Source: Thermoleophilia bacterium (lineage in GTDB: Bacteria > Actinomycetota > Thermoleophilia > UBA2241). Taken from it: a stretch of DNA of 64,000 bases. The notes under the pieces were generated by a model. It was not told the DNA's origin. It worked only from the letters and a program-made list of their open reading frames with translations, and searched no databases. Position numbers and translations under genes: made by a program. Below are positions 21,677 through 61,352 of this stretch, piece by piece. The stretch spans positions 593,419 to 657,418 of the forward strand of contig JAXGZO010000001.1 in assembly GCA_040776965.1 (NCBI GenBank). The letters run 5' to 3'. The first letter of the stretch is position 1. Each line of letters begins with the position of its first letter.

Positions 21677-22915
21677 TTAGGGCTGCGCCGGGTCGGGTTG
21701 CGTCGTCCACCCCTTCTCTCCCTCAATACGCAACAAGAAGACGGGGATGAGGAGGGCTGCAAAGTACAGGGCGAGCAATACGGTGAACAAGGCGGTATAG
21801 GAGCCGGTATGGGCGAGTACATATGAGCTCAGCTGGTTGCCGAAGAGCCCCGCCATCGCCCAGGCGGTGAGCGAGAGCCCGTGGATCTTGCTGATGTTCT
21901 CCATACCGAAGCAATCAGACAAAAGAGTGGGGAGATTGCTAAAGCCTCCACCGTAGGTGGAGTTAATAGCGCAGAGAAGCAGTACTACGATAAAGGCATT
22001 GCCGATAGTTACACTATCCGTGGCGAGTGCGAGGAGGAGCGAGGACACCGAGAGCAGGAGCATAAAGCTATAGATGCTGCTTCGCTTCTTTAATCTGTCT
22101 GATATAACCGAGTAAAAGAACCGTCCACTAGAGTTGAATATAGCTGTTATTGAAGAAAGAGATCCTATGGCAACTATCGATAGTCCGATGTGTTTCATGA
22201 GATCTTTTTCTTGAGATATAAGAGCTAGTCCGCAGCTGATGTTTAAGAAAAGAATAAACCAAACCGCAATAAAATTGCGATTCTTTGCAAGCGAAAAGAA
22301 AGACACCTTGCTTTTCTCATGCTCCTCAGTATAGCCATCTGGCTTTTTTATGAGAAAAACAGCGGTCATCATGAGTAGGAAATAAGTAGCCGACAAGATA
22401 AAAAAGGTACTTATAATTCCAAAGTTTTTGTTTAAGACGACGATGGCCGGACTCGCAATCACCTTCGCGAGTCCGAAGCCCGTGATGGCGAGCCCCGTCG
22501 CTAGCCCCTTATTTTTTGAAAACCAGAGCATCAGTGTTTTAACGGGGGAGATATAGCCAATGCCAAGGCCTACCCCCATGAGGACACCGTAGCTTAGATA
22601 CACACCAGGTAAGCTTTCAAAGAGAAGAGAAACGCCCGTTAAGGCCATTCCAAGAGAGAAGCACGCTGCGGCGATAAGCGACGAGCGCTTTACGTTTTTC
22701 TCAACGAATCCGCCGGAGAAAGCGGCGGATATGCCTAAAAAGAAAATCGCTAGGCTAAAGGCCCACTCCACATCGGCAACCCCACGCCCGATGCTCTCCG
22801 CTATATCGAACTTCAGCAGCGACCAACAGTACACGCTGCCGATGCTGCAATGAATTAAAAGTGCAGGTGCGGCACCGTGCTTTATGGCGGGCGCATACTT
22901 TTTAAGGAAGTTCAT
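21677..22915 (-). CDS. MFS transporter (oxalate/formate antiporter-like family)
   Basis: Twelve-TM MFS topology. Conserved loop GxLxDRxGxR-like (VISDRLKKRS). The central ~400 nt is markedly AT-rich. Confidence 0.85.
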   Translation of the reverse strand: MNFLKKYAPAIKHGAAPALLIHCSIGSVYCWSLLKFDIAESIGRGVADVEWAFSLAIFFLGISAAFSGGFVEKNVKRSSLIAAACFSLGMALTGVSLLFESLPGVYLSYGVLMGVGLGIGYISPVKTLMLWFSKNKGLATGLAITGFGLAKVIASPAIVVLNKNFGIISTFFILSATYFLLMMTAVFLIKKPDGYTEEHEKSKVSFFSLAKNRNFIAVWFILFLNISCGLALISQEKDLMKHIGLSIVAIGSLSSITAIFNSSGRFFYSVISDRLKKRSSIYSFMLLLSVSSLLLALATDSVTIGNAFIVVLLLCAINSTYGGGFSNLPTLLSDCFGMENISKIHGLSLTAWAMAGLFGNQLSSYVLAHTGSYTALFTVLLALYFAALLIPVFLLRIEGEKGWTTQPDPAQP

Positions 22916-23189
22916 TAGTGCCGCTTCTTTCCTATGGTTTGCTCCGCCAAGGGCGAGAGATTGCGCCCGTATGGAGCTCGGCGATCAGGGGCTCTCTCTT
23001 TTTTTCGGCAGAACGACGGCGGCAATTAAGGAATTTTTCGCTCGCAGTGCGCGTTTCGGCCCGTCGGGCGCGGAGGCGCCCAGAAGGAGCTCGCTCGGCG
23101 TGCGAAAAAAGGCGAGCTTGAGACAGGTCGCCCGAAGAGCTGCTCGGGTCTCCCTGATGGGGTGTGCTCGTTTGCTCGAGTTCCGCGCG

Positions 23190-24401
23190 TTACACGGTGC
23201 GCGGCACTCGCTCGTTCAAGAGCTTGGCCTTGACCTCCTGGACGGTGACGCCCTCGAGGTTGCGCCGGGCTAAGAGGGCGGTCGCTCCGCCGCCGCCGAC
23301 GGCGAGATACGAGTCGGCGTCGATGCGCCGAAGGGCGCGGATGCTCCCCCCAAACCCCGCCACTTCCTCGCCGTAGGCGAACTCTCCGTTGGGGGCGCGG
23401 GTGAGGATGCGCGTCTCGCCGTTGGTAAAGGCGCCGCCCACCACGACCCATGAGTCCGCGTCGAGCGGCTGGATGCCGTTGACGTTGGCTCCGAAGCCCT
23501 CCACGGGCTGGCTGTAGCCGAAGCCCCCCTCGTCGTCTCGGGTGAGGATGCACGTGGCGCCCCTCGCCCCCGCGACGATCCACGAGGAGTCGTTGATCGC
23601 GTGGATCGTGCTGATGGAGGAGCTGGGGAATCCCTCTACGCGCTCGCCGTAGGAGGAGTTGCCACGGGGGTCGCGGGTGAAGATGCGCGTCTCGCCGCCG
23701 TCGCCGGCGACGATCGTGGAGGTCGCGTCGACCTTCTCGCTCGCTCGGATGTTGCCGCCGAAGCCCTCGATGTTCTCCCGGTAGATAAAGCTGCTCTGCG
23801 CGTACCTCGTTAAAATCCTCGTCTCGCCGTTGTGCCCGGCGATAAAAAACGAGTCGTTGTTGATGCGTTCTACGGTCGTGATGGCGGAGGTGAAGCCCTC
23901 GATGGCCTCTCCGTAGGCGAAGCCGTCCTCCTCCGAGGAGGTGAGGAGGCGTGTCTCGCCGTCGTAGCCGGCGACGATCCACGAATGGTCGTCGACGGCG
24001 TGCACCGCGCTGATGCTGTTGGTGAACCCCTTTGCCTCGTCGCCGTAGAGGAAGATGCTTGCGTCGAGGCGCGTGAGTACGCGGGTTTCGCCGTAGTCCC
24101 CAAACGCTATCCACGAGGTGTGCCCGAGGGGCTCGACGAGAGTGATGCCGCTCGTGAAACCCTCGACGGCGTGTACGTAGACCAAGTCGCCGAACCCGAG
24201 CTCCTCCGCGAGCTCTCGCTTGTGCTCAAGGAGGAGCTTGTCGAGCTCGAGCTCCGCGTCCTTTACCTTGTCTCTAAACTCCGACGCGGTGACCTCATCC
24301 GGGAGTTTGCCGTTTTCGTTAACGTACTTCTCTATCGTCTTGAGCTCTTTGAGAAAATCGTTGTAGAGCTTGAGCTGTTGTTTTAATCTGCGAGATTTCA
24401 T
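23190..24401 (-). CDS. Repeat protein: N-terminal coiled coil plus seven tandem ~42-45-aa repeats (YGExxEGFxxxI...D.SW.VAG..GETRILTR); possible 7-bladed beta-propeller. No family assigned.
   Basis: Repeats read directly from the translation. ATG at 24401 lies 1 nt after the vWA gene stop. Confidence 0.7.
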   Translation of the reverse strand: MKSRRLKQQLKLYNDFLKELKTIEKYVNENGKLPDEVTASEFRDKVKDAELELDKLLLEHKRELAEELGFGDLVYVHAVEGFTSGITLVEPLGHTSWIAFGDYGETRVLTRLDASIFLYGDEAKGFTNSISAVHAVDDHSWIVAGYDGETRLLTSSEEDGFAYGEAIEGFTSAITTVERINNDSFFIAGHNGETRILTRYAQSSFIYRENIEGFGGNIRASEKVDATSTIVAGDGGETRIFTRDPRGNSSYGERVEGFPSSSISTIHAINDSSWIVAGARGATCILTRDDEGGFGYSQPVEGFGANVNGIQPLDADSWVVVGGAFTNGETRILTRAPNGEFAYGEEVAGFGGSIRALRRIDADSYLAVGGGGATALLARRNLEGVTVQEVKAKLLNERVPRTV

Positions 24402-24402
24402 A

Positions 24403-26481
24403 TTACCTGGTTACCGTGTCGCTTAATTTGCGTTGCAAATTTTGAATAAGAAGATCTGGTAGTTTGCTTACTTCGCTTCCAATGATAATGCCGTTATCGC
24501 CCCATACGTCTTTAAAGACTTTTCCGTCGGTATCGTCTCCAACTAAAAACGCAACTAATTCGATGTGCTGCTCTCGTAGATGGTTTACGTAGAGTTTCAC
24601 CTCATCGATATCGAAGGGTTCTCCGTCGGTGATCTCAAAGATGATCTTCTTCATCTTTCCCTTTTTGAGGTCGACCTGCCGCTTTGAGTCGTAGGTGAGG
24701 TCGTTCAGGAGGTGCTTGAGTACCCCCGCGTTCTCGGTAATGCCCTCGCGGGCGTCTAAAAAGACGATGGATTGAATGATCTCCGACATGGACTGCGCGC
24801 TCGTCTCGTCTTTTGAGAACCTCTTGATCTGCCGGTAGTCGTTGCCGAAGACGAACATCTCGGTGATGGCTCGCAGCGAGAAGCCGTCGCGCATGAGCTC
24901 CTCGTTGAAATCCCTAACGGAGGTGAGGAGCAGCGTCGCCGCGAGCTTTGCCTGGTGGATCCTGTCGCCGTTCATCGACCCGGAGTTGTCGATCACCAGC
25001 GATATCTCGATGGACTCGGGCACCTTGATCTTCTCGCAGTCCACCGCGCGCCGGTCGTAGACGTTGAGCTTGGGCTGCTTGCCCTCCAGGATCTGCTCGC
25101 GGTACTCGGGGTACTGCTGGATGAACTCGTAGACGTTGAGCCTGCCCCTGGGCTGCCGGGTGTGCACGGTGAGCGCGCTGTCGTAGTACTCGCCGATCAG
25201 CCTGCTCCAAAAGTCGACCATCTGGAGGCGCTCGCCTTTAATGCCCTGCGCGATCTCGTCGAACTTTTGGCGCACCTCCGGGGTGATGCTGAAGTCGCGG
25301 TCGAAGGCGCGCTGCCGCTCGAGGCGGTCGCGCTCCGCTCGCTCCGCCCGGGTCATCTCGTCCTCTCGCTGTTTTTTGAGGATCTCCTCGATAAGCTGCT
25401 CATCCTCCTCGGGGGAGTGGGTGAGGGGCGAGTCTTGCTGGGCGAATCGCGTGAAGAACTCGTCGATGAGCTCATCGATGTCGTAGGCTGCGTCGTCTTC
25501 TGGGGGCTGAACTCCGCCGGCCTCGTTGCCGTGCCCCTCGGTCTGCTCGTCGCTGCGCTCCTCGCCCAGGCCCTCTTCCTCCTGGCTCCTGCGGCCCTCC
25601 TGCGTGTGGGTCTCGCTCCTCGCCTCGTCGTCACCGCTCGCCTCGCCGGTCTGTGGCCACTCCGGCAGGAGGCGCTGGAGGTCCTCCAGTAGGAGCTCCA
25701 AAAACGTGGGCAGGATGCGCTCGCCGATGATCTGGTAACGGAGGGCCGGGTCGATAGGCCCCAGGGTCGGTTTGAGTTTTTTGTTGAGGATGTCGACGAT
25801 GGTGCGCCCAAACCAGATCTTTTGGCGGAGCGCCTCCGTCACGGGCTCGGAGATGACCGATCGCGCGCCGTCGGGGACCATCTCGTCGCGCACCAAGGGG
25901 CGCACGAGCTGCGTGTACAGCGGGCGCTCGGTGAAGTCGCTCTCGCCTCCGCCGAGCTTGAGGTAGATATCGCGGACCTGCTCCCTGCCGGAGGGCTGGC
26001 TGTAGTAGCCGGCCTTTCGCGCCACGGTGGTGTTGAGGTAGAGCTCGTCGATGGCGGCGTAGAGCTGGGCGATGACGGTGGAGAGGTGGCGCCGGAGGGA
26101 GGAGCTGCTGAGGCCGTTTCGCTCCTCCTCGCTGAAGTTCTTCAGCACCACCTCGCCGGCGAGGATCTTCTTTGTAAACTCCCTCGCCGCGCGCTCGATG
26201 AAGGCGAACTTCGCGCTGTGCGCGGCCGGGTTGTGGCGCACGTCGGTGAAGTGCGAGAGCTCGCGAAAGAGCATCCACCTGAACTGATCCTTGGTGATCT
26301 GGTTCTCGGCAAGCCAGCGCAGGGGGATGCGGACGGTGTGGTCGCCGTGGTGGTAGGAGAACGCGTCGCCCTCGGGGTCGAGGGCGTACTTAAGGCTGCG
26401 GTCGCCGGCGAAGACGTCGAGCAGCGGGCGGCTTTTTTTGAGCCACTCGGAGGCGATGCTCTCGTAGCGGTCGAGCGGCAT
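24403..26481 (-). CDS. Large vWA-domain protein (C-terminal von Willebrand A domain with DxSxS MIDAS; ~480-aa unassigned N-terminal region with acidic linker)
   Basis: VIDNSGSMNGDRI... MIDAS motif. ATG at 26481 overlaps the AAA gene stop (TAATG); the alternative GTG at 26520 is rejected. Confidence 0.8.
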   Translation of the reverse strand: MPLDRYESIASEWLKKSRPLLDVFAGDRSLKYALDPEGDAFSYHHGDHTVRIPLRWLAENQITKDQFRWMLFRELSHFTDVRHNPAAHSAKFAFIERAAREFTKKILAGEVVLKNFSEEERNGLSSSSLRRHLSTVIAQLYAAIDELYLNTTVARKAGYYSQPSGREQVRDIYLKLGGGESDFTERPLYTQLVRPLVRDEMVPDGARSVISEPVTEALRQKIWFGRTIVDILNKKLKPTLGPIDPALRYQIIGERILPTFLELLLEDLQRLLPEWPQTGEASGDDEARSETHTQEGRRSQEEEGLGEERSDEQTEGHGNEAGGVQPPEDDAAYDIDELIDEFFTRFAQQDSPLTHSPEEDEQLIEEILKKQREDEMTRAERAERDRLERQRAFDRDFSITPEVRQKFDEIAQGIKGERLQMVDFWSRLIGEYYDSALTVHTRQPRGRLNVYEFIQQYPEYREQILEGKQPKLNVYDRRAVDCEKIKVPESIEISLVIDNSGSMNGDRIHQAKLAATLLLTSVRDFNEELMRDGFSLRAITEMFVFGNDYRQIKRFSKDETSAQSMSEIIQSIVFLDAREGITENAGVLKHLLNDLTYDSKRQVDLKKGKMKKIIFEITDGEPFDIDEVKLYVNHLREQHIELVAFLVGDDTDGKVFKDVWGDNGIIIGSEVSKLPDLLIQNLQRKLSDTVTR

Positions 26482-36777: not shown

Positions 36778-37863
36778 ATGAGCGGGGTTTCGGGGAGCCT
36801 CACGGGCGAGCTGCTAAAAGTCATGACCTTCGGCGAGTCTCACGGCTCCGCCGTGGGTGCGGTGGTCGACGGCGTGCCGGCCGGATTGGTGCTGACTGCG
36901 GAGATGATTCAGCGCGACCTCGACCGTCGCCGGCCCGGACGATCCCCCTTTACCTCGCCCCGTCGTGAGGACGATCACGTGGAGCTGCTCTCCGGGGTGG
37001 CTAAGGGGCGTACGCTGGGCTCGCCTATCGCGTTGCTCGTGCGCAATCGCGACGCCCGCTCCACCGACTACGGCCCCCTCGCCGAGGTGTTTCGCCCCGG
37101 GCATGCCGACCTCACGTATCACGCCAAGTACGGTCTGCCGCCTCAGCCCGGCGGCGGCCGGTCCTCAGGCCGAGAGACGGTGGGCCGGGTGGCGGCCGGC
37201 GCGGTGGCGCGAGCCCTTCTCGCCCCGCTGGGCGTGACCCTAAGCGCCTGCACGGTCGGCGTGGGGGAGGTGAGGGCCGCAGAGGGCCAGCGCGACCTCG
37301 CGTTCGCCGAGACCGATCCGCTGCGGTGCCCCGACCCCGCGGTCGCGGGCGCTATGGCGGATGCGGTCCGCGCCGCCCAAGCCGCCGGCGATAGCGTGGG
37401 CGGGGTGGTGGAGGTCGTGGCGAGGGGCGTGCCCGCCGGTTTGGGCGAGCCTGTCTTCGCCAAGCTCGACGCCCTTTTGGCCGGCGCCATGATGTCGATC
37501 GGCGGGGTCAAGGCGGTGGAGGTCGGCGCGGGGCTCGCCGTGGCCTCCCGCAGGGGGAGCGCCAACAACGACCAGATGGACGCCGGCGGCTTCGCGAGCA
37601 ACAACGCCGGCGGCATTCTGGGCGGCATCGCCAGCGGCCAGGAGATCGTACTGCGCCTGGCGGTGAAGCCCACCCCCTCCATCGCTGCCCCTCAGAGCTC
37701 CAGGGATCTGAACGGCGAGCAGCAGACCCTGCGGACCCTCGGCCGCCACGATCCCTGCCTCTGCCCTCGGGTCTGCCCGGTGGCCGAGGCCATGGCCGCC
37801 CTCGTGCTGGCCGACGCGTGGCTCCTCTTCCGCGCTAGGTGGGGGGTCGCAGCGCCGTCTTGA
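36778..37863 (+). CDS. aroC: Chorismate synthase
   Basis: ATG at 36778 follows GAGGGGGGAGGG. Contains TFGESHG, GRSSGRETxxRVAAGA and a GGxSNNDQ-like motif (GSANNDQM). The upstream part of the ORF-track extension is rejected. Confidence 0.95.
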   Translation: MSGVSGSLTGELLKVMTFGESHGSAVGAVVDGVPAGLVLTAEMIQRDLDRRRPGRSPFTSPRREDDHVELLSGVAKGRTLGSPIALLVRNRDARSTDYGPLAEVFRPGHADLTYHAKYGLPPQPGGGRSSGRETVGRVAAGAVARALLAPLGVTLSACTVGVGEVRAAEGQRDLAFAETDPLRCPDPAVAGAMADAVRAAQAAGDSVGGVVEVVARGVPAGLGEPVFAKLDALLAGAMMSIGGVKAVEVGAGLAVASRRGSANNDQMDAGGFASNNAGGILGGIASGQEIVLRLAVKPTPSIAAPQSSRDLNGEQQTLRTLGRHDPCLCPRVCPVAEAMAALVLADAWLLFRARWGVAAPS

Positions 37864-37920
37864 CAAAGGTCCTCTCGGGGTGTTCTACTGAAAAACAGTC
37901 GAAGAAGGGCTATCACTCAC

Positions 37921-38046
37921 ATGACGGGCAGAGCAAAAGTAAGAGCGGGCGCTGAGGGGGTCACCTTCCCCACGGCGACCGCTTTTTTCTTTAGCTACTA
38001 TTATTTTACGAGCATCTGCCCGTCGGCGGAGGAGGTCCTGAGCTAG
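37921..38046 (+). CDS. Candidate 41-aa leader peptide MTGRAKVRAGAEGVTFPTATAFFFSYYYFTSICPSAEEVLS, with a control region of 4 Phe and 3 Tyr codons among 8
   Basis: Translated directly: ATG at 37921 and TAG at 38044-46. The run TTT TTC TTT AGC TAC TAT TAT TTT uses AT-rich codons in a GC-rich genome. It lies between aroC and the DAHP synthase gene. Confidence 0.55.
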   Translation: MTGRAKVRAGAEGVTFPTATAFFFSYYYFTSICPSAEEVLS

Positions 38047-38076
38047 CCTAACGAAGCTTAAGCAGACCGACACCGA

Positions 38077-38116
38077 GGCCATGGGCAGACCGTAGAGTCG
38101 CCCGTGGCCTTTTTTG
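38077..38116 (+). terminator. Intrinsic terminator/attenuator: 10-bp stem GGCCAUGGGC...GCCCGUGGCC followed by UUUUUUG
   Basis: Inverted repeat at 38077-86 and 38100-09 plus a T6 run (38110-15). It sits 60 nt upstream of the DAHP synthase ATG and 31 nt downstream of the leader-peptide stop. Confidence 0.6.
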
Positions 38117-38178
38117 TTGTCTCGGTACGGAACCCTTGACCGGTATGCGCCGGTCGGCCCCCGAGGGAGGAGAGAGAG

Positions 38179-39086
<908 letters not shown>

Positions 39087-39090
<4 letters not shown>

Positions 39091-40232
39091 AGGGGGCGCT
39101 CAAGGGGGTCCCGGAGGCGCCCGTTCAGCGGATCGCCGAGCACCGCCGGTGTATCGACGCCGTGGATCGAGAGATCCTCGACCTGCTCAACCGGCGCGCT
39201 GGCTACGCGCTGGCTATCGCTCGCGCCAAGGGTGCGGGCAGGATCGCTGAGTTCGCGCCCGACCGCGAGAGCACCCTGCTGCGCGACCTCGTGGAGGCCA
39301 ATAACGGGCCGTTTCCCGACGCGGCGCTGCGGGCGATCTTCACCGAGGTGATCAGCGCCTGCAGGGCGTTGCAGCGGCCGCTGAGCGTTGCCTTCTTGGG
39401 GCCGGAGGCGACCTTTAGCCATCAGGCGGTGCTGCAGCAGTTCGGCAGCTCGTGCGATCTGGCACCGCAGGCCACGATCGCCGACGTTTTCGATGAGGTG
39501 GAGCGCGGGCGCTCCCAGGTCGGCGTGGTGCCGGTGGAGAACTCCAGCGAAGGGGGCGTTAACGCCACCCTCGATCGACTCCTGGTGAGCGACCTCGAGG
39601 TCTGTGGGGAGATCTACTCGAGGGTGCATCAGGCCCTCATGAGCGCTTCCGGCGGTTTAGCGGCCGTCCAGCGCGTGTACTCCCACCCTCAGGCGCTGAG
39701 TCAGTGCCGGGAGTGGCTGCAGCGCAACCTGCCCGAGGCCGTGCTCTTGGAGACGACCAGTACGGCCGCAGCCGCTCGCCGCGCCGGCGAGGAGCCGGGT
39801 TCGGCCGCCATCGCCGGTGAGCTCACCGCGGAGCGCTACGGGCTGACCGTGCTGGCCGCTGGTATTCAAGACAACCCGCACAACACCACGCGCTTCTTCG
39901 TGCTCCGCCGCGAGGAGTGCCCGCCGACGGGGGTCGACAAAACCTCTCTCCTCTTCGTCGCCTCGCATCGGCCGGGATCGCTCTACGACGCCCTGGGCCA
40001 CCTCTCGGCGCGCGGGTTAAACCTCACGCGCATTGAGTCGCGGCCCAGCAAGGATCGGCCGTGGCAATACACCTTCTTCGTGGATCTGGAGGGCCACAGG
40101 GACGATGAGCCGGTGGCCGACGCTCTGGCTGATCTGGCCCCCTGTGTCGACAGTCTGAAGGTCCTGGGGTCTTACCCGCAGGGCTTCGTGGAGCGGGCCT
40201 CCCGAGTGGATCCTCAGGGGGAGTGCGGGTGA
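39087..40232 (+). CDS. pheA: Bifunctional chorismate mutase / prephenate dehydratase (P-protein) with C-terminal ACT domain
   Basis: CM helix region ([16 protein letters not shown]), PDT region ([18 protein letters not shown]) and an ACT domain. GTG overlaps the DAHP synthase stop. Confidence 0.92.
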
Positions 40233-41062
40233 GTCAGACGGTCGAGAGCGGCGTGGTGGTGGGCCTGATCGGCGGGCGAGGCAGCATGGGGCGCTGGTTG
40301 GAGCAGCGGCTGGTGCACGCCGGCTGCCGGGTGCTCGTCGCCGACGTCTGCGAGGGCCCCGTAAAGCCGGAGTTCGTGGCCGACTGCCAGATCATCGTTG
40401 TAGCTGTACCCATCAGCGCCGTGGAGGAGGTGATGGCCGAGATTGGCCCATACACCCGCCCCGACGGTCTCGTTATGGACATCGCCTCGCTTAAAGAGGC
40501 TCCCCTCGCGGCTATGCTCAAGCACGCCCGCGGCGAGGTGGTGGGGTGCCACCCCCTGTGCGGGCCGACGGTCGACCAACTCGAGGACCAGATCGTGTTT
40601 CTCTGCGAGGGGCGAGGCGAGCGTTGGCGGGGGTGGGTGGAGCGGTTTTGGGAGAGTCAGGGGGCGAGGGTGGTGGAGATCGCCCCCGAGCGTCACGATC
40701 GGCTTATGGCCGTGGTGCAGAGCCTGCGCCACCTTCTGCTGTACGGCTTGGGCGATGGCTTACGCCAGCTGGGGTTCGACCTCAACGACCTGGAGCTGGC
40801 CGGTCCGCGGTTTCGCTCGCTGATGGAGTTGCTCCAGCGGCAAGTCGAGCAGCCTCCCTCGCTCTACGCCGAGCTCGCCCTCGGGAACCCGCACGTTGCG
40901 CAGGCGCTTGAGGCGCTCACCCTCGGTTTTGAGGACGTAAAGTCGACCCTGGCACGGCGTGACCGCCGGGGGCTAGAGGAGACGATGGCACGCGTTGAAG
41001 GCTGGAGCCGAGCTCTGGTTGAGCCCGAGGCGCCTAGGCCAAGAAGCGCATCCAGCGGATAA
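40229..41062 (+). CDS. tyrA: Prephenate/arogenate dehydrogenase
   Basis: Rossmann GLIGGRGSMG and a prephenate dehydrogenase core. GTG at 40229 is 7 nt after GGGGAG. Confidence 0.88.
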   Translation: MSQTVESGVVVGLIGGRGSMGRWLEQRLVHAGCRVLVADVCEGPVKPEFVADCQIIVVAVPISAVEEVMAEIGPYTRPDGLVMDIASLKEAPLAAMLKHARGEVVGCHPLCGPTVDQLEDQIVFLCEGRGERWRGWVERFWESQGARVVEIAPERHDRLMAVVQSLRHLLLYGLGDGLRQLGFDLNDLELAGPRFRSLMELLQRQVEQPPSLYAELALGNPHVAQALEALTLGFEDVKSTLARRDRRGLEETMARVEGWSRALVEPEAPRPRSASSG

Positions 41063-41255
41063 GGCCGAAGTACCAGGCGACGACGCCGAGGATCACGACC
41101 CAATACGATTTGGTGATGGCGATCAGCATGATCGTGATGCCGATCATGGCGAACGTCCACCACCTCCGCGCCTTGAGTTGATCGGCGTTGAGGCTCTCTT
41201 TACCGGAGAACGGCCCCTTCGATCCCTTTGGTGACTCTGTAGATTCTTCTGTCAT
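41034..41255 (-). CDS. Small (73-aa) two-TM membrane protein, convergent with and overlapping the tyrA 3' end
   Basis: Only the last 73 codons (MTEESTESPKGS...WMRFLA) of the long 41034-41885 ORF are plausible. The upstream part of that ORF reads through a tRNA gene. Confidence 0.35.
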   Translation of the reverse strand: MTEESTESPKGSKGPFSGKESLNADQLKARRWWTFAMIGITIMLIAITKSYWVVILGVVAWYFGLIRWMRFLA

Positions 41256-41324
41256 GGGGGGCAGTGTACACGAGATTCGCGGTGGGTGCTGAGTGGTGTG
41301 GCGCGAGGGCGGTAGAATACGGGT

Positions 41325-41798
41325 GTGGACACTACCGGGACCTTCATCGGCGTCGTGAGCGACACGCACGGCCTCTACGACGAGCAGTTCGACGAGCTCC
41401 TCGCCGGCGCGGCTCACATCATCCACGCCGGCGACATCAACGACCCAACCACGCTCGTGCGCCTGCGGCGCCTCGCCCCGCTCACCGCGGTCGCCGGCAA
41501 CACCGATCTGCACGACCCTCGCTTCGATCTGCCGTGGGAGGCGCAGCTGGAGGTCGCGGGCCTGCGCGTGCTCGTCTGCCATATCCTGGAGAGCCTCATG
41601 CGGCATCACGACCCGGTCGCCGAGGGCTTCGACCTCGTGATCACCGGCCACACCCATCGGCCTCGAATCGAGTGGCGCGGCGAGACGCTCTTCGTGAACC
41701 CCGGCTCGGCGAAGAGCCCGCGGGGAGGCCGGGAGCGCACCTTGGCCATCGTCGACGTCGTGGGGGGTCGGCCGCAGCCGCGCATTGTGGTGCTGTGA
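41325..41798 (+). CDS. YfcE/MJ0936-family metallophosphoesterase
   Basis: Carries the GVVSDTHG, AGDIND and GHTH motifs. Confidence 0.8.
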   Translation: MDTTGTFIGVVSDTHGLYDEQFDELLAGAAHIIHAGDINDPTTLVRLRRLAPLTAVAGNTDLHDPRFDLPWEAQLEVAGLRVLVCHILESLMRHHDPVAEGFDLVITGHTHRPRIEWRGETLFVNPGSAKSPRGGRERTLAIVDVVGGRPQPRIVVL

Positions 41799-41815
41799 GG
41801 TGGGGGAGAAGAACT

Positions 41816-41892
<77 letters not shown>

Positions 41893-41929: not shown

Positions 41930-43024
41930 CTACCGCCGCGTGCGACCGCCCGCTCCGTCGCCCACACTGCGCCCCTGCGAGGCGAGCAGCGCGAGGAGGC
42001 TCTCGTTGATGGCGTCGGCGGTCTCGTGGGCGGCGGCCTTCTGCGGGTAGATTTCGTACTTCGCTCGCTCCGGTGCGGGGGTGAGGTTGGGCATGATCAC
42101 GTTGGCGCCGCGAAGGAGGCCGTGAGTCCTGCCCGTACTCCGCTTAAGCAGCGAGAGCGCCGTGGTGGCCGGGAGGTTCGCGTCGGGGCGCACGAGGCGG
42201 GTGAGCGCGATGACCTTGCAGGTCGCGAGCTCGGTGTTAGGCGCCTGGTCGGCGGGCCAGTCGTCGCTCGCGGTGCGGCGTGCGAACTCGTGGCCGAGCG
42301 GCGTATCGGGGTGGGGGAGGTAGGGGCCGATGCCGATCATGTCCATGTCGGTGCTGCGGAAGAGCTCGATGTCGTCGGCGATGGAGGCGTAGGTTTGGCC
42401 GGGGAGGCCGACCATGATGCCGGTCCCCGTCTCGTAGCCGAGCTCCTGAAGGCGGGCGAGGATCGCGAGGCGGTCGCTCACGCGCCCCGGGAGGTCGGGG
42501 TGGATGCGGCGGTAGAGCTGCTCGTCGGAGGTCTCGAAACGCAGGAGGTAGCGGTCGGCGCCGGCCTCACGCCAGAGTGAGAGGTCGGCGTCTGAGCGCT
42601 CGCCAAGGCTGAGGGTGACGGCGAGCTCCGTCTCCTGGCGGAGGCGCCGCACGACGCGGGCGACCCAGTCGGCGGCGAGGCCGTAGTCCTCGCCGGCTTG
42701 GAGCACTACGGTGCCGTACTTGTACGCGCGTGCGCGGTGCGCGCACGCGAGGATGTCGTCGGCGGACATGCGGTAGCGCTCGACCGCGCGGTTGCCCGCC
42801 CGGATGCCGCAGTACGCGCAGCGCCGCACGCAGTGGTTTGAGATCTCGATGAGCCCGCGGAGGTGCACCGCGTCGCCCACGGTGCGGCGGCGTGTGTCGT
42901 CGGCCGCCCGCCAGAGCTGCTCAAGGCGGGTTTCGTCGCGCTCGCGGAGCCAGCGCTCGATCTCCTCGTGGGTGAGGGCGTCGCCGACGCCGATGGCCGG
43001 GCTCGCCTGCGGTCGCCCGGTCAT
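41930..43024 (-). CDS. hydE: [FeFe]-hydrogenase maturase HydE (radical SAM)
   Basis: CVRRCAYCG radical-SAM cluster in a biotin-synthase-like fold. ATG at 43024 overlaps the hydF stop (ATGA). Confidence 0.9.
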   Translation of the reverse strand: MTGRPQASPAIGVGDALTHEEIERWLRERDETRLEQLWRAADDTRRRTVGDAVHLRGLIEISNHCVRRCAYCGIRAGNRAVERYRMSADDILACAHRARAYKYGTVVLQAGEDYGLAADWVARVVRRLRQETELAVTLSLGERSDADLSLWREAGADRYLLRFETSDEQLYRRIHPDLPGRVSDRLAILARLQELGYETGTGIMVGLPGQTYASIADDIELFRSTDMDMIGIGPYLPHPDTPLGHEFARRTASDDWPADQAPNTELATCKVIALTRLVRPDANLPATTALSLLKRSTGRTHGLLRGANVIMPNLTPAPERAKYEIYPQKAAAHETADAINESLLALLASQGRSVGDGAGGRTRR

Positions 43025-44322
43025 CAGCACGGATCGCTTGCCGGCGCGTCGCCTGCGGTCGCCGCCGGCGAGCGGCCGGAGCGCCCCTCGCCCGCCGCGT
43101 GCATCGCCGCGAGGGCCGCCGGGAAGGGCTCGAGCGCTCGCTCGAGGATGCCGAGGCTGAAGGCGATCACGAGGCCGTAGTTGGTGAGGGGTACGCCGGC
43201 TTGTTTGCAGCGCAACACCCTGCGGAGCATCGCCTTGCGGTTAAAGGTGCAGCCGCCGCAGTGCACGATGAGGTCCCACTGTGAGGGGTCCTCGGGGAAG
43301 TCGTGGCCCTGCACGTGCTCTATTTCGAGCTCGCCGCCGACGTACTGCGCGAGCCACCGCGGGATCTTGACGCGTCCGATGTCCTCGGCGATGGGGTGGT
43401 GGCTGCAAGCCTCGGCGATGAGCACGCGGGAGCCCGGCTTGAGGTTGTCGATCGCGAGCGCGCCCTCCACCTGGCTCGTGAGGTCTCCCTTAAAGCGGCT
43501 GAAGAGGATGCTGAAGCTGGTGAGGGGGACCCCCGCCGGGGTGGCGGCCGCGACCTCCTCGAAGGCCTGCGAGTCGGTGATGACCAGCTTGGGCGGGCCC
43601 GTGAGCTGCGCCAGCGCGTAGTGCAGGTCGCGGTCCTTAACCATGAGCGCCAGGGCGTCGTTGTCGATGAGGTCGCGGATCGACTGCACCTGGGGGAGGA
43701 TCAGCCGGCCGCGCGGTGCCTCTTTGTCGATGGGCACCACGAGGACGGCGAGGTCGCCGGGGGCCACGAGGTCGCCGAGGATCGTGGGGTTGTCGATAAA
43801 GTCCGCGGGGGTGCTGTCGAGTAGCGCTTGGCGGAACTCGAGCACCCCTTTGCCCTCGGCGGCGACGGTGGAGACGGGCGTGAGCCCGAGCTCTTGCAGG
43901 CGGGGTATCGGCGGCGGCTGCGTTACCACGTCCGCCTTGTTGGCCACGACGACCGCGGGGATACCGCGCTCCTGGAACTCGTCGAGGATGCCGTCTTCGT
44001 ACGCCCCCCAGGTGCCCGCCTCGGTGACGAGGACGCCGAGATCCGTGCGGTCGAAGACCTGCAGGGTGCGCCGCGCGCGGAGCTCTCCGAGCGCGCCGAC
44101 ATCGTCGATGCCGGCGGTGTCGATAAAGAGCACCGGGCCGAGGGGGAGCAGCTCCATCGGCTTCTCCACCGGGTCGGTGGTGGTGCCGGCGAAGTCGGAG
44201 ACGATGGAGACCTGTTGGCGTGTGATGGCGTTAAGCAGGCTGCTTTTGCCCACGTTGCGACGGCCGAAGAGGCCGATGTGAAGCCGCATCCCCCGCGGCG
44301 TATCCATGAGGCCCGGTTGCAT
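43024..44322 (-). CDS. hydF: [FeFe]-hydrogenase maturation GTPase HydF (alternative starts at 44307 or 44289)
   Basis: G1 GRRNVGKSS, the G3/G4 motifs, and the C-terminal CxH...HCGGC cluster-binding motif. Confidence 0.9.
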   Translation of the reverse strand: MQPGLMDTPRGMRLHIGLFGRRNVGKSSLLNAITRQQVSIVSDFAGTTTDPVEKPMELLPLGPVLFIDTAGIDDVGALGELRARRTLQVFDRTDLGVLVTEAGTWGAYEDGILDEFQERGIPAVVVANKADVVTQPPPIPRLQELGLTPVSTVAAEGKGVLEFRQALLDSTPADFIDNPTILGDLVAPGDLAVLVVPIDKEAPRGRLILPQVQSIRDLIDNDALALMVKDRDLHYALAQLTGPPKLVITDSQAFEEVAAATPAGVPLTSFSILFSRFKGDLTSQVEGALAIDNLKPGSRVLIAEACSHHPIAEDIGRVKIPRWLAQYVGGELEIEHVQGHDFPEDPSQWDLIVHCGGCTFNRKAMLRRVLRCKQAGVPLTNYGLVIAFSLGILERALEPFPAALAAMHAAGEGRSGRSPAATAGDAPASDPC

Positions 44323-57173: not shown

Positions 57174-57345
57174 GTATCGGGTCGCTTTCGGGTTCCTTCT
57201 CCCTCTCCGCTGGGTACTCTCCGCTTTGTTGGCTCGTATCTCTCCCGTCTCCTCGCTTGCTGCGCCTCCTTCTGCGCGACTCGGGGAGTTCTCGCAGCTC
57301 CAAGTTATGCTTCCTTAAGGGACTATCTTCTGTGAGAGGTAACAG

Positions 57346-58632
57346 ATGAAAGTAAATATGGAAAAAAATACCATTAGAAAATACCATCGAATTGAATTAC
57401 CAGCAAAAGTAAGAATAAATGAAAAATGGCATAATGTAAAAGATTGGTCTCTTGGTGGATTCATGGTAATGGATGTCACCGATGTTTTTGAAAAAGAGAT
57501 AAATTATGACGTAAAGCTTCTATTGCCATTTGATAGCGTAGAGATAGTAGTAGATGTTACAGCTAAAGTAGCTTGGTCGAGAAATGACAGAGCTGGGTTT
57601 TCTTTTGTAAACCTTAGCTCGAAAGCTAAGAATATACTAAAGACTTATCTAAAGGATAGCATAGAGGGAAATCTAGGTGAAATAGACGGTGTTTTAGCGT
57701 ATGTAGATGCACAAGAAATACCACTCCCTATAGAAACTCCAATGACCTCTAATGAAGAGATAGATTTTCAGAGGTCGTTCTATAAAAGAAGCATTCGCTA
57801 CATTATTATAGCATTGGCAGTAGTTGCAATTGCACTAATTATTGTGTTCTCAACTATGACAAGAGCGACAAGTTTAAGGGCAGTAGTATCATCAGCAAAA
57901 GTCAACGTAGATGCTCCATTTGATGGAATGGTAACAAATATATATGTTAAAAGTGGAGACTCTGTAAAAAAGAATCAAATTTTAGCCATATTAGATAATG
58001 GTGATATAAAGAGAAGCGTGGAAACACAGCGATATGCGGTTTTAGCTTCAGAGAAAGAGCTACATGAAGCAAAAGCATTACTAAGAATGGCTAAAAATGG
58101 TAAGTATGTATACAGTAAATATTCTGCAAGCGCAAGTTTATCAATTCTTAATTCAGAAGTTGGAGTTAAGGCTCAGAAGCTCAATGAGGAAAAATCTAGA
58201 TTACGAGAGCTTCTCAGTGAGCTCGACAAGGCAAATCTACGGAGTCCTTGTGATGGCTTTGTTTATGTCTGTAAGCCCTCTATAGGATCAAGCGTTCGCA
58301 AATACGATCAATTCTTTATACTCCAGCCTAACGAAAATGCAAATATGTACATACTTGCTCGATTTACATTTGACGCAGCTAAGGGTATTTCACCTGGAAG
58401 TACAGCAGATGTATTTATTCCATCGCTGGGTAAAAGAGTAAAGGGAACGGTTCGATCTATGGGAACCCAGGCACTTGGTGGCGCAGAGGGATCTCTTGAT
58501 TTAGAGATAAGCACACAAGAGGTTCCAGTTGCTATTGTATTGAATGACAATAGTTTGAATTTGAAAAGTGGTATCTCAGCAATAGTAGATGTAAGAACTC
58601 CAATTAAAGCAAGGTTAAAGCGCATACTGTGA
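57346..58632 (+). CDS. PilZ domain - TM - HlyD-like membrane-fusion-protein fusion (Alg44-like c-di-GMP-binding co-polymerase architecture)
   Basis: PilZ motifs R(K)xxxR (IRKYHR) and D/NxSxGG (DWSLGG). Single TM. Biotin-lipoyl-like MFP hairpins (DAPFDGMVTNIYVKSGDSV; SPCDGFVYV). Coding sequence is ~35% GC. Confidence 0.8.
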   Translation: MKVNMEKNTIRKYHRIELPAKVRINEKWHNVKDWSLGGFMVMDVTDVFEKEINYDVKLLLPFDSVEIVVDVTAKVAWSRNDRAGFSFVNLSSKAKNILKTYLKDSIEGNLGEIDGVLAYVDAQEIPLPIETPMTSNEEIDFQRSFYKRSIRYIIIALAVVAIALIIVFSTMTRATSLRAVVSSAKVNVDAPFDGMVTNIYVKSGDSVKKNQILAILDNGDIKRSVETQRYAVLASEKELHEAKALLRMAKNGKYVYSKYSASASLSILNSEVGVKAQKLNEEKSRLRELLSELDKANLRSPCDGFVYVCKPSIGSSVRKYDQFFILQPNENANMYILARFTFDAAKGISPGSTADVFIPSLGKRVKGTVRSMGTQALGGAEGSLDLEISTQEVPVAIVLNDNSLNLKSGISAIVDVRTPIKARLKRIL

Positions 58633-61352
58633 GAAAAGTTTACTGCGAATCAACTCCTAGAATATTAACGACAAAAGACGCCGTTCTAAAGTCTCTTAGA
58701 GTTACTATTCTTTATATAGCTGTTATTGCCATCTTTCTCTCTCTTATACCAGAGGAAGCTTGGTATATAAAAGGGCATAGTGGGTTGATCGTTATAGGTG
58801 TGTTCGGAATATGGCGATACTCATGGCAAGTTATTCATATTATCAGAATGCTCATTTACCGCATGAAGAGATTCCCTGTCATGCGAGAAGAGGCATGCAG
58901 GCTAGAGGATAAATATCCAAAAAGACTCTATTTCGTTATTCCATCATACTTTGAGATGCCTGAGATAGTTTTAAAGGTATTCAAATCAATTATGGATGAG
59001 TGCTCTTCTTTGCCATGCGAAATGATTTCAATAATCATGAGTGTTGGATCGCAAGAAGAAGTAAATCATATAAATAAATTTGCAATAGAGAACTACGATC
59101 TAAGAAATGTGAAAATCACGTTCATGATCCAAAAATCAGGCAAGAGAATTGCAATGGGTCATGCTCTAAGGGCTGTATCAAGGGATTTCAATAGAGTATC
59201 TCAATGGGATGAGAGCAACAAAGATGATCTAGTTGTAATGATGGATGGTGATGCAGTATTAGTGAGTGGAATACTTGAGAAAACTCTACCATTATTTAAA
59301 ATAAAACCAAATCTTGGCGTTGTTACTCCAAATAACATAGCGCTCTCAATACATCCCGATAGCATATTTCAAATCTGGTATCAGCTGAAATTTATGCAGA
59401 GAAATCATACATTTCAGTCACATAGTTTGTCGAAGAGAATTCTGACAACTACCGGAAGATTTTGTGTTTATCGTGCCCCAATTGTCGTTGATAATGAGTT
59501 TATTAAGTTCGTTGAAACAGACCATATCGATCATTGGATATTCGGGCGATTCAGGTTCCTTATGGGCGATGATAAAAGTACATGGTTTTATTGCCTAAAA
59601 GAGGGATATGAAATGCTCTATATCCCTGATGCTCATGTGCTATCAATTGAAGAGCGATCTAAGGGATTTTTTAAAACATCCATATCTCTTATGAAGAGAT
59701 GGTATGGTAATACATTAAGAAATAATAAAAGAGCAATTATGCTCGGTCCAAAAAAGATGGGATTTTTTATATGGTGGTGTCTAGTTGATCAAAGATTGAC
59801 AACATGGACACCACTTGTTGGTCTTGTAAGCTCGATAATGTTATCGATATTTATTTCTCCATATTATTTTATGTTCTATATGATTTGGGTTTTGATAACA
59901 AGACTTTTGATGTCATGGGTTTATGTTCTGCAAGGAATGCGTCTGAGGGTAGAACATATTATTATTATGATATATGTACAATGGGTTGGCTCAATTGTAA
60001 AGCTAATAACAATGTATAATTTAAAAAAGCAGTCATGGGATAAGGGAGAAAGTAGTGATTCAATTTATGAAGAATTACACGGTATCTTTCCTGTTTTCCA
60101 AAAATCCATTAGACATATGATGGTTGGGTTGAATATATTTATACTATTTATCTTTTGTGGACTATCGACGCACGCTCTTTCCGTTCCGCCACTGGCATTT
60201 TTTAAGGATTTTTTCACAATACAAGCAGCGGAGAGGCCGTCTTCTAGGGTGATAAATGCTGCTGAATTCGGAGCAGTAGGGAATGATTCAGTAGCTGACG
60301 ATGTGGCAATAAATAAAGCCATAAGATCGGTAAGCAGCGATGCGCAAACTACACTACAGTTGCCATCTGGAAGGCTTATACTTAATGCTCCAATACGTGT
60401 AAATAAAAGTAATATAACTATCGCCGGCGATAAAAATTCATCCACGATACTAGACTCTCATTTCTCCATAAAAGAAGGATCATCAGCAATAGTAGTTAGC
60501 GGAGATAAAGGTGCTAGTATCGGAAGTCTATCTGTCGACGCGAAAAAAAATGACGAAGTACTCCTGATAGATCCTCGATATAAATCTGAGAGTACATATA
60601 AAAATGCAGAGTATATATGGATCGGAACTCCAAATACAAAAGAATTTCTCGATAAAATAGGATCAAAAGAGTGGAATAGAGAATATCCGTGGCTTCGACA
60701 GACGATCGTTCAATCATATAGCATAAGCAAGGATGCTATTAAAATACTTAAACCGCTATCTTTTGACATGCCAGAAAAAGCAGAAATTTACGCTCCAAAT
60801 ATTATTAGAGGAATTACTATTAAGGATTTATCATTAACGCAAGCTGTTCCGAATATGAAAACTCAGCAAGCGAAGTCACAGTACAGAGATCTTGCATCAA
60901 AATATGCAGTTAACGGAATAAGCTTTGAGTGGGCTGCTCATTCAGCTGTTGAGAATGTTACTATTGACTACGCAGGGAGAAATCCAATATCGCTGGAGAA
61001 TTCGTACTCTGTAAATATGAAGAATCTCCACATCGATGGATCGTGGAATAAGGGAAAAGACGGTAACGGGTACGTGAGGTTTTCTCGTTCTTATTACTGC
61101 TCGATAGCTGATAGTGAGATAAAGGATATAAGACACCTGGTATTTCAGTGGAGCTCTTCTCATAATACCGTTGAGCATTGCAAGATATACGTCGATGTCA
61201 ATTTCCACGGCGGATTCAGCCACGATAACCTCGTTACCGGATGCACTATCAGCCCGCCGGACTCTCATCCCTGGGGTAGGGTCACTCGGATGAAGAAGGG
61301 CGGGTCGCACTGGGCCCCGGCGGACGGTGAGGGCAACGTGGTGAGGCGGTAG
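58629..61352 (+). CDS. Membrane GT2-family polysaccharide synthase fused to a C-terminal right-handed beta-helix (polysaccharide lyase/epimerase-like) domain
   Basis: GT2 core (DxD-like DGD, QRLTTW resembling QxxRW) flanked by TM helices. The C-terminal ~380 aa shows beta-helix repeat character (NxTIxG, VxNxTI). GTG overlaps the upstream stop. The gene is low-GC except for the last ~150 nt. Confidence 0.75.
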   Translation: MRKVYCESTPRILTTKDAVLKSLRVTILYIAVIAIFLSLIPEEAWYIKGHSGLIVIGVFGIWRYSWQVIHIIRMLIYRMKRFPVMREEACRLEDKYPKRLYFVIPSYFEMPEIVLKVFKSIMDECSSLPCEMISIIMSVGSQEEVNHINKFAIENYDLRNVKITFMIQKSGKRIAMGHALRAVSRDFNRVSQWDESNKDDLVVMMDGDAVLVSGILEKTLPLFKIKPNLGVVTPNNIALSIHPDSIFQIWYQLKFMQRNHTFQSHSLSKRILTTTGRFCVYRAPIVVDNEFIKFVETDHIDHWIFGRFRFLMGDDKSTWFYCLKEGYEMLYIPDAHVLSIEERSKGFFKTSISLMKRWYGNTLRNNKRAIMLGPKKMGFFIWWCLVDQRLTTWTPLVGLVSSIMLSIFISPYYFMFYMIWVLITRLLMSWVYVLQGMRLRVEHIIIMIYVQWVGSIVKLITMYNLKKQSWDKGESSDSIYEELHGIFPVFQKSIRHMMVGLNIFILFIFCGLSTHALSVPPLAFFKDFFTIQAAERPSSRVINAAEFGAVGNDSVADDVAINKAIRSVSSDAQTTLQLPSGRLILNAPIRVNKSNITIAGDKNSSTILDSHFSIKEGSSAIVVSGDKGASIGSLSVDAKKNDEVLLIDPRYKSESTYKNAEYIWIGTPNTKEFLDKIGSKEWNREYPWLRQTIVQSYSISKDAIKILKPLSFDMPEKAEIYAPNIIRGITIKDLSLTQAVPNMKTQQAKSQYRDLASKYAVNGISFEWAAHSAVENVTIDYAGRNPISLENSYSVNMKNLHIDGSWNKGKDGNGYVRFSRSYYCSIADSEIKDIRHLVFQWSSSHNTVEHCKIYVDVNFHGGFSHDNLVTGCTISPPDSHPWGRVTRMKKGGSHWAPADGEGNVVRR

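Follow-up and report, generated by a model that had tools for sequence, protein, structure and literature searches.

A candidate leader-peptide attenuator with Phe and Tyr control codons upstream of a DAHP synthase-pheA-tyrA operon

The leader between aroC and the DAHP synthase gene

We have analysed a stretch of 64,000 nucleotides (nt) of contig JAXGZO010000001.1, hereafter the window, in which the genes aroA, aroK and aroC are followed by the genes for DAHP synthase, chorismate mutase/prephenate dehydratase (pheA) and prephenate dehydrogenase (tyrA). aroC ends at 37863, and the gap before the DAHP synthase gene (37864–38178) is 315 nt long, not 316 nt as counted in an earlier note made without any comparison (the sequence-only reading). 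That note had proposed that the gap holds an attenuator, with a Phe/Tyr-rich leader peptide and an intrinsic terminator. Our analysis consists of sequence inspection, RNA folding with z scores against shuffled sequences, and comparison of related loci. It supports the proposal, with the open reading frame (ORF), the codon run, the terminator and two alternative pairings all found and all conserved together with DAHP synthase. We consider it probable (about 0.85) that the DAHP synthase-pheA-tyrA operon is controlled by this element, acting as a ribosome-mediated, i.e., leader-peptide, transcription attenuator. Its parts are as follows.

37860–37865, plus strand: −35 hexamer TTGACA of the leader promoter, as read from the sequence
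37884–37889, plus strand: probable −10 hexamer TCTACT (predicted), after an 18-nt spacer, with TG at 37881–37882 (extended −10)
37901–37909, plus strand: Shine-Dalgarno-like GAAGAAGGG, 11 nt before the leader AUG
37921–38046, plus strand: leader ORF, 41 codons and UAG, translating to MTGRAKVRAGAEGVTFPTATAFFFSYYYFTSICPSAEEVLS
37924–37932, plus strand: segment A (ACGGGCAGA, leader codons 2–4), anti-antiterminator and perfect complement of segment B
37943–37984, plus strand: hairpin 1, GC-rich, within the leader ORF
37984–38007, plus strand: control codons TTT TTC TTT AGC TAC TAT TAT TTT, read as FFFSYYYF
38015–38027, plus strand: segment B (UCUGCCCGU C GGC), alternative partner of A or of C
38028–38035, plus strand: Shine-Dalgarno-like motif GGAGGAGG, 8 nt before the leader stop, kept in the family
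38075–38118, plus strand: intrinsic terminator T1, with stem 38075–38111, core GGCCAUGGGC (38077–38086) and GCCCGUGGCC (38100–38109), and U6 (38110–38115) followed by GUU
38078–38089, plus strand: segment C, the portion of the T1 5' arm captured by B in the antiterminator

The leader ORF at 37921–38046 is borne out by translation, and the run of 4 Phe and 3 Tyr in eight codons is as previously described. These codons had been called rare AT-rich codons in a genome of ~68% GC. Actually, the GC content of the window is 63.8%, and TTT and TAT are minor codons rather than rare ones, as they constitute 34% of the Phe codons and 23% of the Tyr codons in its long ORFs. As to aromatic density, among the 704 ORFs of at least 20 amino acids (aa) in the six frames of the window, the leader ORF is the only one with at least 6 aromatic residues in eight (it has 7), while the runners-up have 5. 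The peptide is already present in a public protein collection (NCBI and Logan sources) as a 41-aa entry without name or annotation. That is, the ORF has been called as a gene there, but its nature as a leader peptide is unrecognised. A protein search for homologues of the peptide returned the identical sequence only, and its cluster at 90% identity consists of this one sequence.

The 10-bp hairpin and U6 of the sequence-only reading are found at the positions listed above for T1. With its inner extension, T1 has a folding energy of −26.6 kcal/mol (z = −6.1 against dinucleotide shuffles); its 3' arm (38100–38109), directly followed by the U6, is referred to as segment D. A simple consensus scan for promoters and terminators has flagged neither T1 nor the leader promoter, giving just two overlapping chance matches (one hairpin, within the DAHP synthase gene). 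Its rules are too strict for both elements: terminators must have no internal mismatch and loops of 3–8 nt only, while promoters must have A at position 2 of the −10 hexamer, where TCTACT fails. Although the scan missed it, T1 is real, as judged from its folding and conservation.

Two further pairings compete around T1. The complementarity between UCUGCCC and GGGCAGA, from which an antiterminator had been proposed, does exist, with GGGCAGA correctly placed at 38083–38089; UCUGCCC lies at 38015–38021, not 38014–38020. Its earlier extent was too short. In full, UCUGCCCGU (38015–38023) pairs with AUGGGCAGA (38081–38089) and GGC (38025–38027) with GCC (38078–38080), giving a B:C duplex of 12 bp and −22 kcal/mol, which occupies almost all of the T1 5' arm. 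On the other side, the A:B duplex has −29.3 kcal/mol (z = −6.4) and is included in the minimum-energy fold of the leader (37895–38120; −101.8 kcal/mol, z = −5.7). This fold also contains hairpin 1 (−27.0 kcal/mol, z = −4.3), and leaves the aromatic codons unpaired in a large loop closed by A:B. Hairpin 1 is followed by the U-run UUUUUUCUUU (37983–37992), which is formed by the first three Phe codons, so that the hairpin has a terminator-like form. The A:B pairing, hairpin 1 with its Phe-codon U-tract, and a second chained terminator in most relatives (see below) are features beyond those noted before. In the same fold, the motif at 38028–38035 pairs with the stretch between the leader Shine-Dalgarno sequence and the AUG.

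The leader promoter is probably of the sigma-70 type, with a predicted transcription start at ~37896–37897, some 25 nt ahead of the leader AUG. The stop codon of aroC (TGA, 37861–37863) is embedded in its −35 hexamer. Between aroC and the leader there is no terminator, and therefore any readthrough from aroA-aroK-aroC would also be subject to the attenuator. Downstream of T1, the region 38111–38178 contains no remnant of a second terminator, just a small hairpin (38138–38155) without a U-run. The region after T1 can pair, by its U-run, with the Shine-Dalgarno sequence of the DAHP synthase gene, which is not significant (z = −1.5).

Conservation in related loci

We have collected related loci in two ways. 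A scan with the DAHP synthase protein, taking one genome per species, gave 80 loci. The closest of them have DAHP synthases that are 59–77% identical to that of the window and come from Desulfarculus, Desulfomonile and metagenome-assembled genomes (MAGs) of Syntrophaceae/Syntrophales, the nearest being Desulfarculus MAGs (73–77%). A small upstream ORF with 5–7 aromatic residues in eight is present in 18 of the 19 closest loci, and 16 of the 18 reach 7/8 (examples are FFYFSYYYFTAVCPVAGEV, YFYFWRFYYFVCLPVSGGL and YWFYYFYASVCPLLRRT). Common to these loci are further a TTGACA promoter, a Shine-Dalgarno sequence, and a stop codon 17–29 nt before a hairpin GGCCAUGGGYAGA...CCCAUGGCC with a U-run; the distance between the last aromatic codon and the stop is likewise conserved (30–39 nt). 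In almost every related locus the −35 hexamer precedes the leader ORF at the corresponding position, and the equivalents of the −10 hexamer, again at the same position, read gtgTTTAGT, gtgTTTATT or gtgTTTACT. The Shine-Dalgarno sequences of the relatives are GGAAG, GGGAG or GAGG, 5–7 nt before the start codons.

The second set was chosen from metagenomes by the terminator sequence alone. Of the 120 matching loci, 28 carry an aromatic-rich ORF upstream of the terminator, and wherever enough sequence is available (20/20), a DAHP synthase gene lies downstream on the same strand, 80–460 nt away. The leader accompanies DAHP synthase also where aroC is missing on the upstream side or is found downstream instead (L013–L018, L062, L115 and L173). 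Over the 18 genome and 28 metagenome loci, the leader ORF has 27–42 codons and its stop lies 17–31 nt before the terminator. Start, Shine-Dalgarno sequence, open frame and stop-terminator distance have been kept in ~46 loci of widely different GC content. In nearly all of these loci the run has 6–7 aromatic residues in eight, and in one it has 5.

The N-terminal half of the peptide is unconserved even between close relatives. The run remains aromatic, with F, Y and W permuting freely within it, and at the C-terminus the conserved "VCP" is encoded where RNA segment B lies. Selection on codons and RNA pairing would give such a pattern, but not selection on a peptide or on a fixed RNA loop. Most relatives also have GGAGG or AGGAGG 5–12 nt before the leader stop, yielding peptide ends of the type ..LRR.., and the corresponding motif at 38028–38035 could keep the terminating ribosome in place by pairing with its anti-Shine-Dalgarno sequence.

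We have calculated pairing statistics from an alignment of 19 species, with the same pairs slid by 1–3 columns as controls. For the terminator, standard pairs occupy 92% of the cells (21–52% when slid), and 7 pairs have changed on both sides. For the antiterminator B:C, the proportion is 86% (33–39% when slid), with 13 cells changed on both sides. For example, a change of B from CUGCCC to CUACCC is matched by a change of C from GGGCAG to GGGUAG; in L004, CCGCUC is matched by GAGCGG, and the 3' arm has been altered to match. In the metagenome loci, B:C has z < −2 in all 26 cases (26/26), with means of −24 kcal/mol and z = −5.0. As for A:B, it is out of register in the alignment, since the window, L002 and L003 have A 3–4 nt deeper in the ORF; we have therefore used duplex energies of the individual sequences with shuffles, instead of RNAalifold. 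In the relatives, B finds its partner in the start context AUGGGY or AUGGACAGA, and over the genome loci this pairing is significant, with a mean z of −2.6.

Equivalents of hairpin 1 stand directly before the aromatic run in the closest clade (L001–L004, −17 to −24 kcal/mol), while none was found in the more distant relatives. We would guess, by inference, that hairpin 1 and its U-run act as a pause or translation-coupling checkpoint which synchronises ribosome and polymerase.

A second hairpin with a U-run (E:F) lies 10–15 nt after T1 in 14 of 19 sequences, which comprise the window and the 18 related genome loci (it is present in L001–L003 and L005–L015; e.g., L007:2952–3031 and L005:254–327). 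In the 14 sequences, D, the 3' arm of T1, is strongly complementary to E, with duplex energies of −9 to −26 kcal/mol and a mean z of −3.6 (L003 is the weakest, −9.2 kcal/mol and z = +1.0). This complementarity allows, as a predicted arrangement, a chain of A:B/C:D/E:F in the OFF state against B:C/D:E in the ON state. The first hairpin has a poor U-tract in L001–L004, of which L004 is without the second hairpin; in L001–L003 the second hairpin may be the real terminator. In the window, the first hairpin carries a good U6 and E:F is absent.

The proposed switch and other explanations

In the attenuation model, when Phe and Tyr are plentiful the ribosome would cross the eight aromatic codons and segment B and reach the UAG at 38044, where it would span ~38029–38058, between B and C. 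C would then pair with D, and A with B behind the ribosome, so that the polymerase would terminate at 38110–38116; the same OFF state would be adopted if the leader is not translated. When Phe-tRNA or Tyr-tRNA is scarce, the ribosome would stall with its A site at 37984–38004, i.e., 11–31 nt before B. B would remain exposed and would capture C immediately after its synthesis, while D has yet to be made, no terminator would form, and transcription would read through into the operon. Stalling would thus be the signal, and we infer that the response is to Phe and Tyr themselves. In the ON state, A would have to be kept away from B. We suggest two means, which are not exclusive: the stalled ribosome may sit between A and B and obstruct this long-range helix, in the way that a ribosome at the stop would obstruct B:C, or trailing ribosomes may be queued back onto the start codon. 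In nearly all members, the first aromatic codon is at about codon 9–12 or 20–24 (values which are phylogenetically non-independent), that is, about one or two ribosome footprints from the AUG, which fits the idea of a queue.

The design had been likened to pheL and aroR, and of the features of leader-peptide attenuators, the promoter, short ORF, codon cluster, terminator and antiterminator are all present. Known leader attenuators of this kind include trpL, pheL and pheST of E. coli and trpL and aroR of C. glutamicum (PMC11802643, PMC7356990). E. coli pheL-pheA, of the trpL/hisL class, resembles the window in having a short leader ORF with end-product codons, an intrinsic terminator ahead of the first structural gene, and pairings of the 1:2 / 2:3 / 3:4 type that exclude one another; its regulated unit also includes chorismate mutase/prephenate dehydratase (PMC11802643, PMC3082878). 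On the other hand, the two share no sequence or covariance-model similarity (Rfam, E up to 10), and the first regulated gene in the window is DAHP synthase. Compared with the pheL class, the window has a long leader of 41 codons, in which Phe and Tyr are mixed and to which relatives add Trp; its segment A falls within the beginning of the leader ORF; and its stop codon lies between B and C, so that a terminating ribosome leaves the antiterminator strand uncovered. The textbook segment 1, which contains or abuts the control codons and is masked by the stalled ribosome, is missing here, where these codons lie in the loop between A and B.

In C. glutamicum, aroR encodes a leader peptide with Phe-Tyr-Phe upstream of the DAHP synthase gene aroF (PMC11802643, PMC7356990), and ribosome stalling at its Phe/Tyr codons enhances transcription, according to Neshat et al. 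2014 as cited in PMC11802643. The functional layout, a Phe/Tyr-codon leader directly before a DAHP synthase operon, is the same as that of the window, and it is by layout, not by sequence, that we compare them. aroR has three control codons against 7 of 8 in the window, the availability of Tyr reportedly has no effect on it, and its host belongs to the Actinobacteria, which we have counted as a different phylum; with this distance, homology to aroR is unlikely. T-box leaders of aromatic genes in Firmicutes also read tRNA charging by a terminator/antiterminator switch in the 5' leader. They sense uncharged tRNA directly and without translation, whereas the present leader lacks T-box sequence and stem I and conserves an ORF instead.

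Several observations weigh against the attenuation model as described. The leader Shine-Dalgarno sequence, at 11 nt from the AUG, has a long and poor spacing. RNAalifold on whole leaders recovers the terminator helix only, and A:B is significant (z < −2) in only 13 of 24 metagenome loci. The control codons are outside segment A, unlike those of the trp, his and phe leaders, and a ribosome at the leader stop physically covers neither B nor C. Energetically, once T1 is complete, the terminator state (−46.2 kcal/mol) is ~13 kcal/mol more stable than the antiterminator state (−33.1 kcal/mol). Moreover, when a single stalled ribosome is masked in equilibrium folding, A:B and the terminator are obtained at every stall position.

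In the folding check suggested by the sequence-only reading, B:C is the minimum-energy fold of 38012–38092 (−33.1 kcal/mol), i.e., before D is made, and the full terminator state is favoured afterwards. We have rejected a purely thermodynamic model with one ribosome, as masking each control codon or the stop never gave the antiterminator. With masks on both the stall site and the start site, the best fold obtained for the whole leader is the antiterminator. Thus it is best only with A occluded and D not yet made, and the simple two-state picture is incomplete. Segment A is situated at the start of the ORF, 52 nt ahead of the first control codon, where a single stalled ribosome does not mask it. 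Since the terminator state is the more stable one, antitermination must be kinetic and needs A to be blocked. In known attenuators, likewise, the terminator state is more stable once the 3' arm is present. The position of A is a departure from the textbook layout and not an argument against the mechanism as such.

A more elaborate version of the attenuation model may be suggested tentatively, and we would not favour it at present: the window would belong to an undescribed, widespread family of the Desulfarculales, Desulfomonilales and Syntrophales with an extended chain of helices, in which A is neutralised by trailing ribosomes jammed on the start codon. The start context AUGG(G/A)YAGA, which mimics the terminator arm, fits this version, and so does the terminator-like hairpin with the Phe-codon U-tract in the closest clade, which could abort the polymerase when no ribosome is close. 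Under the same tentative version, the window would possibly have lost the E:F link.

Explanations other than attenuation have to be weighed against these data. The aromatic codons lie unpaired under the strong A:B helix, and masking one ribosome does not flip the structure; such a leader might be read without translation, with the closed fold displaying the AU-rich UUUAGCUACUAUUAUUUUACGAGCA to uncharged tRNA in the manner of a T-box, to a small molecule or to a protein, and the ligand deciding between B:C and C:D. A sensor of this kind is hard to reconcile with the comparisons above, in which the RNA sequence of the loop is unconserved and only its aromatic coding content is kept, with F, Y and W permuted, while the translation signals and the stop-terminator distance persist in ~46 loci. 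No T-box motif or stem I is seen in the window leader, and cmscan of 37000–39000 against the 4227 Rfam families (E up to 10) matched neither T-box nor Phe_leader, giving only weak chance matches to unrelated families. We regard the sensor as very improbable. Separately, a T-box or any other known riboswitch or leader was rejected as a candidate, with no relevant Rfam match in this region or in 15 related loci, where cmscan at the gathering threshold gave tRNA matches only.

If the ORF is translated, it might still serve some other end, as a small hydrophobic peptide acting in trans, or in translational or Rho-dependent control with the hairpin used for processing or stability. Trans-acting leader peptides do exist, e.g., peTrpL (PMC7298713, PMC7968998), A:B sequesters the leader start region, and there is the pairing, not significant as noted above, between the U-run of the region after T1 and the Shine-Dalgarno sequence of the DAHP synthase gene. 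A functional peptide would hardly have a variable N-terminal half, a conserved C-terminus (..VCP..) that coincides with segment B, and no homologues beyond the identical sequence, and T1 has fully the anatomy of an intrinsic terminator, with a conserved U-tract. Such roles are improbable, and as an extra layer on top of attenuation they are not needed. Finally, T1 could be the plain terminator of aroA-aroK-aroC and the aromatic ORF a chance product of an AT-rich spacer. It is true that readthrough from aroC would end at T1 in the absence of any other terminator before the leader. Yet a conserved TTGACA promoter stands between aroC and the ORF, the ORF-terminator unit precedes DAHP synthase also in the loci without aroC upstream, and the aromatic run, unique in the window, recurs in every relative; the comparative data exclude this reading almost with certainty.

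Implications, similar leaders and the surrounding genes

In the literature searched and in Rfam we have found no description of this attenuator family. For the delta-proteobacteria/Desulfobacterota there is only a passing mention, one sentence of Gurvich et al. stating that, beyond the gamma-proteobacteria of their survey, a few bacteria such as Bacteroides and Desulfobacterium autotrophicum may use pheL, a Phe-codon leader, for pheA (PMC3082878). This mention gives no structure, family definition or link to DAHP synthase, and it is by this description only that we set it apart. The family is conserved and apparently undescribed and uncurated, while the principle itself is known. It offers a testable regulatory element for aromatic biosynthesis in little-studied anaerobes, namely Desulfarculus-like sulfate reducers and syntrophs, where no such control has apparently been described. 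The ~46 loci define it well enough for curation as an RNA family, and annotation could improve, because the leader ORF stands without name or annotation in the protein collection. In addition, the layout, with control codons between helices, a segment overlapping the start, and chained tandem terminators in relatives, makes a natural system for studying how RNA folding depends on the position of the ribosome and not on masking alone.

Aromatic-rich ORFs have also been observed before type I-beta DAHP synthase genes in 11 further loci (L019, L022, L023, L030, L032, L034, L041, L042, L053, L055 and L078), from Spirochaetia, Oscillospiraceae, Lachnospiraceae, Negativicutes, Bacteroidota and Desulfuromonadales (examples are MKTQNAYYAGYFYFGYYFKIGP and MISHNSNTPNSFFFSYYFWFQ). 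In 10 of the 11, a script located an unrelated hairpin and U-run 23–55 nt after the stop; in L019 a similar hairpin was seen by eye only. None of the 11 leaders has a match in Rfam. It looks as if aromatic leader-peptide control of type I-beta DAHP synthase is widespread and largely uncurated, and leader-peptide attenuation of the first enzyme of the pathway would then be common well beyond the model proteobacteria and actinobacteria.

The genes downstream of the leader are as the sequence-only reading had named them, and their reading frames overlap in an operon-like manner:

38179–39090, plus strand: type I-beta DAHP synthase, 303 aa, catalytic domain only (NCBIfam PRK08673, 441 bits, profile positions 64–334 of 338)
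39087–40232, plus strand: chorismate mutase/prephenate dehydratase (pheA), overlapping the DAHP synthase gene by 4 nt
40223–41062, plus strand: prephenate dehydrogenase (tyrA), overlapping pheA by 10 nt, final gene of the unit

tyrA is taken as the last gene of the unit because the next ORFs are on the opposite strand. By Pfam, the DAHP synthase has a DAHP_synth_1 match and an overlapping NeuB match, and neither an ACT nor a chorismate mutase domain. It has an N-terminal extension of ~25–48 residues outside the matched domain. The homologues in L013–L018 begin with an extra domain (MIIVMKK..ATEEQI), which we take to resemble a regulatory domain of ferredoxin-like fold in the Thermotoga enzyme. 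Feedback inhibition may be missing from the window enzyme, which would then rely on attenuation. Since an allosteric N-terminal domain is absent, carbon entry into the pathway may be controlled mainly by the attenuator.

On the minus strand after tyrA lie an ORF of 283 aa (41034–41885) without a Pfam or NCBIfam match, and, at 41930–43030, a HydE-type radical SAM maturase of [FeFe] hydrogenase, which is consistent with an anaerobic host. Further away, a strongly AT-rich island (~57300–60850) interrupts the window of 64% GC. It holds an ORF of 907 aa (58629–61352, plus strand), in which a family-2 glycosyltransferase domain is combined with a pectate-lyase-like beta-helix; this may be a polysaccharide gene obtained by horizontal transfer. 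There are smaller AT-rich patches at 7800–8230, 22134–22919 and 24381–24461.

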